The notes beneath the pieces are model-generated. The model saw only the letters and a list, made by a program, of their open reading frames with translations. It searched no databases and was not told the DNA's origin. From assembly GCF_041248615.1 (NCBI RefSeq), contig NZ_CP158426.1: 64,000 bases of DNA. One strand, written 5' to 3'. Shown here in pieces: positions 2,234 to 24,317 of this stretch (position 1 is the stretch's first letter; each line of letters starts with the position of its first letter). The DNA comes from Escherichia coli. GTDB taxonomy: Bacteria; Pseudomonadota; Gammaproteobacteria; Enterobacterales; Enterobacteriaceae. The position numbers and the translations under genes were made by a program.

Positions 2234-5941
<3,708 letters not shown>

Positions 5942-20258: not shown

Positions 20259-21479
20259 GTGGTTGCTGAAAATCAGCCTGGGCACATTGATCAAATAAAG
20301 CAGACCAACGCGGGCGCGGTTTATCGCCTGATTGATCAGCTTGGTCCAGTCTCGCGTATCGATCTTTCCCGTCTGGCGCAGCTGGCTCCTGCCAGTATCA
20401 CTAAAATTGTCCGTGAGATGCTCGAAGCACACCTGGTGCAAGAGCTGGAAATCAAAGAAGCGGGGAACCGTGGCCGTCCGGCAGTGGGGCTGGTGGTTGA
20501 AACTGAAGCCTGGCACTATCTTTCTCTGCGCATTAGTCGCGGGGAGATTTTCCTTGCTTTGCGCGATCTGAGCAGCAAACTGGTAGTGGAGGAGTCGCAG
20601 GAACTGGCGTTAAAAGATGACTCGCCATTGCTGGATCGTATCATTTCCCATATCGATCAGTTTTTTATCCGCCACCAGAAAAAACTTGAGCGTCTGACTT
20701 CGATTGCCATTACCTTGCCGGGAATTATTGATACGGAAAATGGTATTGTACATCGCATGCCGTTCTATGAGGATGTAAAAGAGATGCCGCTCGGCGAGGC
20801 GCTGGAGCAGCATACCGGCGTACCGGTCTATATTCAGCATGATATCAGCGCATGGACGATGGCAGAGGCCTTGTTTGGTGCCTCACGCGGGGCGCGCGAT
20901 GTGATTCAGGTTGTTATCGATCACAACGTGGGGGCGGGCGTCATTACCGATGGTCATCTGCTACACGCAGGCAGCAGTAGCCTCGTGGAAATAGGTCACA
21001 CGCAGGTCGACCCGTATGGGAAACGCTGTTATTGCGGGAATCACGGCTGCCTCGAAACCATCGCCAGTGTGGACAGTATTCTTGAGCTGGCACAGCTGCG
21101 TCTCAATCAATCCATGAGCTCGATGTTACATGGACAACCGTTAACCGTGGACTCATTGTGTCAGGCGGCATTGCGCGGCGATCTACTGGCAAAAGACATC
21201 ATTACCGGGGTAGGCGCGCATGTCGGTCGCATTCTTGCCATCATGGTGAATTTATTTAACCCACAAAAAATACTGATTGGCTCACCGTTAAGTAAAGCGG
21301 CAGATATCCTCTTCCCGGTCATCTCGGACAGCATCCGTCAGCAGGCCCTTCCTGCGTATAGTCAGCACATTAGCGTTGAGAGTACTCAGTTTTCTAACCA
21401 GGGTACGATGGCAGGGGCTGCGCTGGTAAAAGACGCGATGTATAACGGTTCTTTGTTGATTCGTCTGTTGCAGGGTTAA
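20259..21479 (+). CDS. mlc: ROK-family global regulator Mlc (DgsA), 406 aa, GTG start
   Basis: Track ORF 406 aa MVAENQPGHIDQIKQTNAGAVYRLIDQ...; GTG at 20259. Confidence 0.92.
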   Translation: MVAENQPGHIDQIKQTNAGAVYRLIDQLGPVSRIDLSRLAQLAPASITKIVREMLEAHLVQELEIKEAGNRGRPAVGLVVETEAWHYLSLRISRGEIFLALRDLSSKLVVEESQELALKDDSPLLDRIISHIDQFFIRHQKKLERLTSIAITLPGIIDTENGIVHRMPFYEDVKEMPLGEALEQHTGVPVYIQHDISAWTMAEALFGASRGARDVIQVVIDHNVGAGVITDGHLLHAGSSSLVEIGHTQVDPYGKRCYCGNHGCLETIASVDSILELAQLRLNQSMSSMLHGQPLTVDSLCQAALRGDLLAKDIITGVGAHVGRILAIMVNLFNPQKILIGSPLSKAADILFPVISDSIRQQALPAYSQHISVESTQFSNQGTMAGAALVKDAMYNGSLLIRLLQG

Positions 21480-21603
21480 CATTTTTTAACTGTTCTACCA
21501 AAATTTGCGCTATCTCAATTTGGGCCAGGAAAGCATAACTTAGACTTTCAAGGTTAATTATTTTCCTGGTTTATATTTGTGAAGCATAACGGTGGAGTTA
21601 GTG

Positions 21604-22299
21604 ATGCTGAAGCGTTTCTTTATTACCGGTACAGACACTTCTGTAGGGAAAACGGTGGTTTCCCGCGCATTGCTACAAGCGTTAGCCTCCCAGGGAAAAA
21701 CGGTTGCGGGATATAAACCCGTAGCGAAGGGGAGCAAAGAGACACCCGAAGGGCTGCGTAATAAAGATGCCCTGGTGTTGCAGAGTGTTTCAACCATCGA
21801 ACTGCCTTATGAAGCAGTTAATCCTATCGCGTTAAGCGAAGAAGAAAGTAGCGTGGCGCACAGTTGCCCAATCAATTACACCCTCATTTCAAACGGCCTG
21901 GCAAACCTGACCGATAAAGTCGATCATGTGGTGGTAGAAGGGACTGGCGGCTGGCGCAGTCTGATGAATGATTTGCGTCCGCTCTCTGAATGGGTGGTGC
22001 AGGAACAACTGCCGGTATTGATGGTTGTCGGTATTCAGGAAGGTTGCATTAACCATGCACTGCTAACAGCTCAGGCGATCGCCAACGACGGGCTACCGCT
22101 CATTGGCTGGGTGGCTAACCGAATCAATCCAGGACTGGCGCATTATGCGGAAATCATTGATGTGCTCGGTAAAAAACTTCCGGCACCGCTCATTGGTGAA
22201 CTGCCTTATCTGCCGCGCGCCGAACAGCGTGAACTGGGGCAATACATCCGCTTAGCTATGCTGCGCAGTGTGCTGGCGGTAGATAGAGTCACGGTGTAA
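21604..22299 (+). CDS. ynfK: Dethiobiotin synthetase paralogue (BioD-like), 231 aa
   Basis: Track ORF 235 aa; start placed at [17 protein letters not shown] (ATG 21604) with P-loop; 3' end overlaps clcB 3' end by 48 nt. Confidence 0.85.
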
Positions 22300-23508
22300 A
22301 GTCCGCGAAATTACCGACGCAATTACGCAGGCAATCAATAAACCGGGGAGTAGCTGATACTCCCCGGTCATTTCACATATCATCAACGTCGACATAATCG
22401 GCGCGTGCGTGGTTGCCGCCAACAGTGTCGCCATCCCGGTCAATCCGAGTAAAAGCGTAATTTCTTCGCCATCAGGGAACCATAATCCCAGGCTACGACC
22501 ATACAACATGCCAATGGCAAGACCGATAAATAGCGTCGGTGTAAAGACACCACCGGGCGCGCCAGAACCACTACTCGCCAGCACGGCAAACAGTTTACAG
22601 AGGAAGATCCCGGCAATGATCATTAACAGTGGCGGGGCGGTTAAAAAGGATTGTACGGTGCTATAGCCGTTGCCCCACACTGCAGGTGTGAACAGGGAAA
22701 GCAGCCCCACGATCAACCCGCCCAGTGCCAGTTGCCAGGGCGGCGCAAGTTTGAGACTCACAAATCCACGATGACAGGCGTTCATTAACGTTAACAACAG
22801 TGGTCCGCACAGACCTGCCAGCACACCTGTACTGATAATCAGCGCATAGTCACGAGCCTGAACCGTCACTGAGAGTTGTACGCTGTAGAGTAACGCGTCG
22901 CTATGATTAATCAGATTGCTAACCAGCAACGCCACGACGGCGGAAATAATCACCGGGCCGAGAGAGGCCAACATCATAGTGCCAAACAGCACTTCGGCTA
23001 TAAATAAACTGCCAGCAAGCGGGGCGCGATAGGCCGCAGCCATTCCCGCCGCAGCTCCACAGGCGATCCATAATTTCCACTCCTGGCGTGGCGTAAAACG
23101 TTGGGCAAAACAGGAGGCGGCAAGGGCAGCTAAAAGAATCATCGCACCTTCGCGACCAATTGCACTGCCGCTGGTTACTACCAGCAGAGAGGCAAGCGAT
23201 TTAACCAGGCTTGCTGCGTAATCGAACTGCCCATCGGTTTGCAACGCTTCCATGTAATCGGTCGGCGCATGAGGGCGTTGCTGGGTAAATTTCTGCCAGC
23301 CCATCAGCAACAAACCCGCCGCCAGTCCGCCGAGCGCCGGAGTTAGCAGCCGTCGCCACGGGGAAAGATTTGTCGCTGCATTGACCAGACTGCCCGAGTC
23401 ATTATTGAGGAACAACCACTCCAGTAGCAGCATCGTATGACGAAACCCGGCAACGGCAAAGGCCGCGAGAATACCGACGACTGTTGCGATAAGCAGACGG
23501 CGGAACAT
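22252..23508 (-). CDS. clcB: ClC-family voltage-gated chloride channel, 418 aa
   Basis: Track ORF 438 aa; start placed at [12 protein letters not shown] (complement ATG 23506-23508); GSAIGREG and GGVFTP ClC motifs present. Confidence 0.88.
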
Positions 23509-23702
23509 AGTGCGCAGATCCGGATAGATGTGTAGATGATGCATGAGCAGAAATGGGCAATGAAACACGGGCGACTATTTTGCGGCAAAAGAAGCCAGAC
23601 GCAAAAGCAGTGCGTGCTTTAAGAGATAAAAAAACGTGACACTGTAACCTATTATTGCCGAATTGCGCGTAATCGCCACCATCCGGCAATATTACGGTGA
23701 TT

Positions 23703-24317
23703 CTATCGAAAGAGTGGTTTAACCGCGACAGGAATTAACAGTTGTGATTGCCATTGCGCCAGCGTTAAGCGAGCCAGTTCACCCAGTGCACGGTAGAAAG
23801 GGTGTTCTGCTTTTTCGATAAAAACGTCAAGAAAACGTGTTGACCACGGAAAAAGGTGCCATGCCAGCAATTCTTCGCATTCTGTCTGGCGACCATTCTC
23901 CGCCAACCACGCAGCCATCAACAGCAGTGAACCAAAATGATCTTCCGGTTCGTTTTGCTTCATTTCAAACTGAATGCCTTTCTCGCGCATCCACTGACGA
24001 AGTGCCAATGTTGAATCGCCAAACAGCACAGATTCGCGATCCAGCCAGACCGACCCCCACGGCGGTGATGGCAGAGCCCACGGACCGACAAACAAACGCT
24101 GCCAGGCCTGGGCGTGAGTCTCTTCACACTGTGTCTGAAAAGCCGTCACCAGCGGCGCTAATGACGCTTCTGGTAGAGGCCACTGAGTTTCCCAGCCGTC
24201 ACGGGTGAGTACCGCAACCAGAGGTGCGGCTTCCGCACTCTCTGGAGCGTAATAAAACAGCGCGCCCAACACGCGCGCCGCGACAGAAAAATTATCTTGC
24301 TGTGAAAAATGGGTCAT
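23703..24317 (-). CDS. dmsD: Tat proofreading chaperone DmsD, 204 aa
   Basis: Track ORF 207 aa; start placed at MTHFSQQDNFSVAARVLGALFYY; follows ynfEFGH. Confidence 0.9.
   Translation of the reverse strand: MTHFSQQDNFSVAARVLGALFYYAPESAEAAPLVAVLTRDGWETQWPLPEASLAPLVTAFQTQCEETHAQAWQRLFVGPWALPSPPWGSVWLDRESVLFGDSTLALRQWMREKGIQFEMKQNEPEDHFGSLLLMAAWLAENGRQTECEELLAWHLFPWSTRFLDVFIEKAEHPFYRALGELARLTLAQWQSQLLIPVAVKPLFR

Follow-up and report, generated by a model that had tools for sequence, protein, structure and literature searches.

Conserved convergent overlap of ynfK and clcB in Enterobacteriaceae, with a hairpin in clcB codons at the probable end of the ynfK transcript

Rho-dependent transcripts of Escherichia coli end just past stable stem-loops that lack a U-run and protect against exonucleases (Dar & Sorek 2018, PMC6061677). 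The bidirectional terminators described by SEnd-seq are single GC-rich stem-loops with A/T flanks, which lie between the boundaries of convergent genes and fold in both transcripts (Wang et al., 10.1101/2022.10.23.513370). In antiparallel dual-coding genes, two conserved proteins are encoded on opposite strands under reciprocal codon constraint, with stops supplied by antisense Leu codons. The convergent genes ynfK and clcB share traits with each of these. Like the stem-loops of Dar and Sorek, the one that follows ynfK is stable, has no U-run, is followed directly by a 3′ end and shows bicyclomycin (BCM)-sensitive read-through; unlike them, it consists wholly of codons of the convergent gene and is co-constrained with a protein motif, and its protection against exonucleases is putative. 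It has the convergent setting, the single GC-rich stem, the A/T flanks and the folding in both transcripts of the SEnd-seq terminators, but it lies inside one CDS, beyond the overlap. As a dual-coding pair, ynfK and clcB differ in that their overlap is short, confined to C-terminal tails, set in the most permissive register and formed by two old, well-characterised families, with no novel overprinted gene.

We consider it probable that ynfK and clcB form a genuine and very old tail-to-tail pair of the Enterobacteriaceae, in which the ynfK transcript ends after a hairpin in clcB codons, largely in a Rho-dependent manner. The overlap is already annotated in RefSeq and leaves the function of both proteins as it is. 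The main addition beyond the overlap coordinates is the transcript-end hairpin, which is an ordinary kind of feature. The features of the locus are listed in Table 1.

Table 1. Features of the ynfK/clcB locus. Positions are those of the window, the whole 64,000-nt stretch of E. coli DNA (contig NZ_CP158426.1) that was analysed.
Feature	Position	Strand	Basis
ynfK (K-12 name bidA; PGAP label bioD), 231-aa BioD paralogue	21604..22299	+	ORF and RefSeq CDS
clcB, ClC-type chloride channel/antiporter	22252..23544	-	ORF and RefSeq CDS
ynfK/clcB dual-coding overlap, 48 nt	22252..22299	both	ORFs and per-codon table of both frames
clcB stop TAA, complement of YnfK Leu217 TTA	22254..22252	-	ORF
ClcB Tyr410 codon TAC (YnfK Val226 GTA on the + strand)	22279..22281	-	alignment to ClcA 1kpl
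ynfK stop TAA, complement of ClcB Leu404 TTA	22297..22299	+	ORF; same stop in 80 loci
Putative ynfK 3′ UTR, antisense to clcB codons 378-403	22300..22376	+	published terminus
Rho region peak, 'primary ynfK, antisense clcB'	22309	+	PMC7815308, K-12 1666514 (-)
Hairpin, 11-bp stem, 5-nt loop	22342..22368	+	terminator scan, fold, covariation

Within the overlap, each gene has 15 sense codons and its own stop, with YnfK L217-V231 facing ClcB L404-S418. The frames are in codon-antiparallel register with common codon boundaries, ynfK position 1 lying opposite clcB position 3. Read opposite YnfK from L217, ClcB gives stop-S-H-Q-A-T-H-Q-R-Y-I-S-D-R-H-L404. The same ends are annotated in RefSeq for an identical genome, for another strain and for K-12 MG1655, where clcB (1665315..1666571) and bidA (b1593; 1666524..1667219) also overlap by 48 nt. 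The original prediction, a convergent 48-nt overlap of the last 16 codons of both genes, is thus borne out by ORF ends, codon register and RefSeq ends alike, its 16 codons being the 15 sense codons plus the stop. Positions 21500-23700 match NZ_OW967178 at 100% identity. Of the 5426 complete E. coli genomes, 5415 carry them at 95% identity or more, and the overlap region was found in 5410.

The length of the overlap is unremarkable. Antisense stops in this register arise only from TTA, CTA and TCA codons, and a 15-codon open antisense run has a probability of ~0.54-0.59 in ynfK/clcB, so we rejected the idea that the overlap is improbable by its length alone. What goes beyond chance is its conservation. 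We scored 82 loci (80 species loci plus the window, L001 and L002, minus L083), and clcB overlapped ynfK in 66 of them, across Escherichia, Salmonella, Citrobacter, Klebsiella, Enterobacter, Kluyvera, Raoultella and Buttiauxella. The overlap was 48 nt at 36 loci (Escherichia, Klebsiella, Kluyvera, Raoultella, Buttiauxella and others), 45 nt at 15 (Salmonella and Citrobacter), 66 nt at 11 (Enterobacter and Leclercia) and 39 nt at a single locus of Raoultella terrigena. Three further loci, with a ClcB nonsense codon at Q412, retained 27 nt. At the 16 loci without an overlap, clcB was not intact; the clcB 3′ stump of one locus (L011) was scored -51.

ClcB is a well-supported member of its family. 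It scored 874.7 bits against the ClcB equivalog model NF002437 (cut-off 425) over model positions 2-429 of 429, and the Pfam Voltage_CLC domain spans residues 72-414 of the 430-aa form that starts at 23544 in RefSeq; the K-12 start, at 23508, gives 418 aa. Residues 7-410 align to residues 38-445 of ClcA (1kpl), which places Tyr410 on Tyr445. Tyr445, the tyrosine conserved in ClC proteins, coordinates chloride in ClcA. Tyr was present at position 410 in all 65 loci compared. ClcB likeness to ClcA (ClC-ec1) extends up to this Tyr, but ClcB ends 8 residues past it and ClcA 28. Of the 471 positions of the ClcA model ClcB reaches no further than 445, and of the 577 positions of the ClcB-like model no further than 433. 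Within genera the clcB stop is conserved, and in every genus ClcB ends 7-14 aa past the invariant Tyr, which itself lies inside the overlap.

YnfK scored 134.2 bits against TIGR00347 bioD (cut-off 83.3), which places it in that family, and 106.6 bits against Pfam AAA_26 (cut-off 27). Its residues 1-220 align with all 221-224 residues of E. coli BioD (PDB 1a82/1dts; E 5e-65), so that the whole BioD fold is matched, but 11 C-terminal residues extend beyond the paralogue. The putative activity comes from the K-12 RefSeq product name alone, 'dethiobiotin synthetase BidA'. In an AlphaFold2 model, mean pLDDT was 91, with the BioD fold confidently predicted, and pLDDT fell below 50 at residues 226-231, opposite ClcB D-S-I-Y. 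Almost all of the best 120 database relatives, from Salmonella, Citrobacter, Klebsiella, Raoultella, Kosakonia, Kluyvera, Buttiauxella and other genera, were 231-232 aa long, with the tail consensus L-x-x-V-h-A-V-D-R-[VI]-x-A. At 80 of 80 species loci YnfK had 231 aa and the ynfK stop fell at the same codon. Comparing both C-termini with orthologues, as proposed with the original prediction in search of an extension of either protein, gave a mixed result: YnfK is 11 aa longer than BioD but equally so in every orthologue, and ClcB is shorter at its C-terminus, not longer, than ClcA and ClcB-like relatives.

The YnfK tail is under selection of its own and is more than a passenger. At the 16 loci without an intact clcB, YnfK remained 231 aa long and D-R-[VI]-L-A was retained, with D227 and R228 each kept at 14 of 16, [VI]229 kept and A231 present at all 16. 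The third positions of the tail codons were free at these loci (1.4-1.9 bits).

We then compared per-site entropy at ynfK codon positions 1, 2 and 3 over 65 loci. The ynfK-only part gave 0.20/0.04/1.16, as under normal purifying selection on YnfK, and the clcB-only part gave the mirror pattern, 1.21/0.30/0.64, as under selection on ClcB. The eight overlap codons beside the ynfK stop followed the ClcB pattern (0.99/0.25/0.45), and ClcB D-S-I-Y was nearly invariant there. In the distal seven codons (1.04/0.38/1.20), both tails were under loose constraint. Codons 223-231 formed the strongest synonymous-constraint window of ynfK, in which V226 was GTA in 58 of 58 cases, the most extreme synonymous constraint in the gene, and A231 was GCG in 55 of 56. 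In clcB, codons 374-382 ranked first for synonymous constraint, the overlap codons 404-412 second and codons 385-393 third.

Each stop also fixes a rare Leu codon in the partner gene. ClcB L404 was encoded by TTA 49 times and by CTA 12 times (n = 61) and never by the common CTG, because the L404 codon has to supply the ynfK stop. The mutual constraint suggested in the original prediction is thus upheld by frozen synonymous sites in both genes and by the stops, with ClcB as the stronger partner. The dual-coding overlap is genuine: both frames and both stops are conserved, and both frames are under selection. The proximal part is dominated by the ClcB frame, through the motif R-T-L-x-x-D-S-I-Y that includes Tyr410, and YnfK reads the antisense of this motif as a flexible 11-residue tail beyond its BioD fold.

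The hairpin lies outside the overlap and is written in clcB codons 380-389 (M-T-G-E/Q-Y-x-L-L-P-G). Counted from the ynfK stop it is 43-69 nt downstream, and it precedes the clcB stop by 115 nt. It is the main element of the local fold (-28.8 kcal/mol; z -5.1 in the ynfK sense). Stem positions were paired in 93% of cells in an alignment of 64 loci (57 distinct sequences), compared with only 19-44% in slid-register controls. One stem pair switches between C-G (33), G-C (17) and U-G (3) in a compensatory manner, and a second occurs as G-C, G-U and A-U. The covariation score was reached by 0 of 500 shuffles, a control that ignores phylogeny, and it derives mainly from one base pair with perhaps one or two independent switches. 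In loci of Enterobacter hormaechei and E. cloacae, the covarying pair is mismatched.

The hairpin also leaves its mark on clcB codon choice. The main C-G/G-C switch couples a change of ClcB E383 (GAG) to Q (CAG) with a synonymous change of Leu387 from CTC to CTG. Of the 14 conserved Thr positions of clcB, only Thr381 had a codon of zero entropy, ACC in 61 of 61 loci; of the 16 conserved Pro positions, only Pro388 did, with the rare CCC in 61 of 61. Gly382 used the rare GGG or GGA in 60 of 61.

Published transcript maps place the ynfK 3′ end at this hairpin. Supplementary Data 2 of TRS (PMC10687069), from one re-analysed dataset, includes a 3′ terminus classed as primary for ynfK, at K-12 1666447 (range 1666442-1666455, - strand) with a signal of 0.83 and adjusted p values of 4e-15, 4e-9 and 2e-11. 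Converted via the K-12 sequence, the terminus falls at 22376 (range 22368-22381), the C of ...CUCCCCGGUCAUUUCAC, 8 nt beyond the last paired base. The transcript thus ends 77 nt beyond the ynfK stop and, with the 48 nt of the overlap, has ~125 nt complementary to clcB mRNA. Adams et al. (PMC7815308, supplementary file 2) report a Rho region at the end of ynfK with a Rho score of 4.2 (p 1.5e-6). Upstream/downstream reads there were 85/11 without BCM and 292/159 with BCM, so that the downstream/upstream ratio rose from 13% to 54%; these values were measured in 800-nt windows, a coarse resolution, and the peak lies upstream of the hairpin. The curated Term-seq 3′ ends of the same study have no entry for ynfK or clcB, and neither gene occurs in the supplements of PMC12207403.

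The hairpin does not read as a canonical intrinsic terminator of ynfK. The GC-rich stem-loop is present, but the tract after the stem in the ynfK sense, UCAUUUCAC, is not a U-run, the terminator scan made no call on the + strand, and the rise in read-through with BCM does not fit Rho independence. This poor U-tract is limited by the opposite ClcB codons. The ynfK end instead shows both marks of a protective stem-loop, BCM-sensitive read-through and a precise 3′ end after a stem-loop that lacks a U-run.

Most likely, the hairpin defines the end of the ynfK transcript. Transcription of ynfK would pass the overlap, run 77 nt further antisense to clcB, and end at, or be trimmed back to, the hairpin. 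In E. coli, termination would depend largely on Rho, with intrinsic termination weak at most, and the hairpin would serve as a stable 3′ stem-loop by which the mRNA end is marked and protected. Rho would keep antisense transcription from going further into clcB. From the position and evolution of the hairpin we infer that it causes or protects the ynfK 3′ end, and clcB may be affected as well. The original prediction had also raised transcriptional interference between the two genes, which is plausible.

The loci that have lost clcB amount to a natural experiment. Four of them (L011, L023, L052 and L059) keep only the last 56-109 clcB codons, which overlap ynfK and now abut dmsD. In two other lineages, Trabulsiella (L047 and L079) and Lelliottia (L057), a hairpin-only remnant, CCGGGCAG...CTGCCCGG, is plainly derived from clcB and has shifted nearer to the ynfK stop; the L047 remnant has also kept the tail CAUUUCAC. 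The hairpin thus survives the loss of clcB at three loci. In Citrobacter amalonaticus (L017, and probably also L010), a similar hairpin, CCGGGGAGC...GCUCCCCGG, is followed by 7-8 U, which makes it a canonical intrinsic terminator at both loci (z -4.4 and -3.6). Two Kosakonia loci (L040 and L041) have unrelated canonical terminators after the ynfK stop. Judged by eye, a hairpin follows soon after the ynfK stop at most clcB-less loci, four of which were folded. U-runs occurred only at the clcB-less loci L010, L017, L040 and L041.

Several loci freed from the clcB coding constraint have a U-run after the hairpin.

How the arrangement arose is a separate matter. A single junction may have created it, with the native 3′ ends of both genes lost, reciprocal overprinting of the two tails, and ynfK taking clcB codons as its terminator hairpin; we regard this origin as possible but rather doubtful. 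ClcB would then have been cut to 8 residues past the Tyr and given a new tail from antisense ynfK, and the last ~6 residues of YnfK, antisense to D-S-I-Y, would have come under selection in their own right later. A Pantoea orthologue of YnfK (65% identity) keeps the ynfM-ynfL-mlc-ynfK synteny and has a permease downstream in place of clcB, and its YnfK tail is of like length and other sequence. BioD-family C-termini vary in length by 0-14 aa. The short ClcB C-terminus, the tail and synteny of Pantoea and the variable BioD tails together allow a single-junction origin without proving it. If it holds, the RNA structure of ynfK dictates clcB codons and even an amino acid, E/Q383.

On another reading of the hairpin, polymerases converging from ynfK and clcB collide at it as at a bidirectional terminator, with mutual repression of the two genes by interference or by pairing of their 3′ ends over at least 125 nt. 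The genes are convergent, the stem-loop is flanked by an A-rich tract and, on its other side, by a tract containing T, and E. coli stem-loops have been described that set the place where convergent polymerases collide head-on (bioRxiv 10.1101/2022.10.23.513370). Nor does clcB seem to have a terminator of its own inside ynfK: past the clcB stop the RNA gave no significant fold (z +0.76), and no dip in synonymous variation marked one in ynfK codons 170-222. However, stopping clcB 115 nt before its stop would yield a non-stop mRNA, the data searched showed no clcB 3′ end or expression effect, and the Rho dependence of the ynfK end is foreign to the collision model. We therefore consider collision at the hairpin unlikely, although it can coexist with a largely Rho-dependent ynfK end. 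As a class, bidirectional terminators were rejected as a label for this hairpin, which sits within clcB and has no clcB-sense 3′ end listed.

The hairpin might alternatively be selected for the clcB mRNA, where it could stabilise the message, make ribosomes pause or act as an intragenic attenuator that responds to translation. In clcB-sense RNA it folds about equally well (z -4.4), the tract after the stem, UUUAUUGAUUG, is more U-rich, and the scan called the inverted repeat (22341-22369) on that strand alone. The A.C mismatches of the + strand at the apical and basal pairs also become G.U in clcB-sense RNA. Against these points, 22 wobbles within the 8-bp core fit G.U in ynfK-sense RNA and 2 in clcB-sense RNA, and the better conserved flank is the ynfK-sense 3′ side. 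The published 3′ end belongs to the ynfK strand, and neither PMC7815308 nor PMC10687069 lists a clcB-sense 3′ end at the hairpin. The hairpin-only remnants stand beside ynfK at three loci that lack clcB, and others have U-run hairpins there. A role in the clcB message is accordingly quite improbable.

That the overlap is an annotation artefact or strain-specific read-through, with one gene ending earlier in most relatives, as the original prediction had allowed, is refuted, since the extra 11 aa of YnfK relative to BioD, the low pLDDT of its last residues and the few lineages with ClcB truncated at Q412 are outweighed by a ynfK stop that is constant in 80 of 80 loci, listed orthologues of almost uniformly 231 aa, a ClcB end 7-14 aa past the Tyr in every genus, the agreement of RefSeq and K-12 annotation on both ends and the retention of D227, R228 and A231 after clcB loss.

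On the reading that we prefer, a real pair with a largely Rho-dependent ynfK end, ~125 nt would carry three layers: two protein C-termini, two stops supplied by Leu codons and a transcript-end hairpin. 'Silent' recoding or deletion at the clcB 3′ end, including standard knock-outs, may thus change ynfK/bidA expression, and the reverse is possible too. The locus is also a compact system for the co-evolution of Rho-dependent 3′ ends with coding constraint, because clcB-less relatives have a U-run after the hairpin beside ynfK. A literature search for the ynfK-clcB overlap, the embedded hairpin or 'bidA' found no specific paper. Compared with Rfam at a permissive threshold, 21400-23800 gave only SR6_antitoxin at chance level (23 bits against a gathering score of 55; E 0.57). 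On the + strand past the hairpin (22369-22528), C and G fractions were 0.30 and 0.21, a C-over-G excess too mild to demonstrate a rut site, though in keeping with one. With regard to its expression, ynfK is a direct target of activation by FNR (PMC3688515).

The ClcB C-terminus is cut short in three of the compared loci, one labelled 'E. coli strain E69' and the others from two Superficieibacter species. All carry a stop at ClcB Gln412 (418-residue K-12 numbering), which reduces the overlap with ynfK to 27 nt. These alleles suggest that the final 7 ClcB residues are dispensable. On the ynfK strand, a second in-frame stop, TAA, follows the ynfK stop at a distance of 14 codons, at window positions 22339-22341 opposite ClcB Leu390, whose codon is TTA in 38 of the 61 loci. 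Any ynfK read-through would be capped there, just ahead of the hairpin at 22342-22368.

Many E. coli ClcB database clusters (P0130 and ~30 others) are 393 or 405 aa long. These lengths arise from an in-frame deletion of 25 residues (sequence not shown), and the shortened proteins would lack a membrane helix; both the clcB 3' end and the ynfK overlap are intact in these alleles. Four separate genomes retain only a 3' remnant of clcB, 56-109 codons long, and the gene was wholly missing in the loci of Kosakonia, Trabulsiella, Lelliottia, Pseudescherichia vulneris, and Intestinirhabdus.

The annotated clcB start also differs between sources. A 3' end following a hairpin has been mapped in the clcB 5' UTR at K-12 position 1665250 (+) (Supplementary Data 2 of PMC10687069). 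This 3' end looks like the dmsD terminator, and clcB may therefore need either read-through or a promoter of its own.

Coordinates of clcB and ynfK features (L-numbers, compared loci; L083, K-12)
Feature	Position	Strand	Remark
ClcB 25-residue in-frame deletion	window 22807-22881		clcB codons 210-234
ClcB Gln412-stop allele	L004 (E69) 3170-3196; same positions in L060 and L065 (Superficieibacter)
clcB 3' stump	~3155-3460 in each of L011, L023, L052, L059		directly adjoins dmsD
clcB start, PGAP	window 23544		430 aa
clcB start, K-12	window 23508		418 aa
clcB longest ORF	window 23568		GTG; 438 aa
3' end in clcB 5' UTR	window ~23573	-	between dmsD and clcB
b1593/bidA	NC_000913.3 1666524-1667219; L083 2025-2720

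The K-12 RefSeq record now names b1593 (ynfK) bidA, 'dethiobiotin synthetase BidA', and PGAP calls the gene bioD in other strains; no use of the name bidA was found in open-access papers. Two record titles are probably the result of mislabelling or contamination: CACSKA010000003.1 (L037), titled Chryseobacterium sp. 18061, carries a typical Enterobacteriaceae mlc-ynfK-clcB locus, and CAAEVH010000055.1 (L014), titled uncultured Raoultella, is identical to Citrobacter braakii (L015) over the 165 nt compared.
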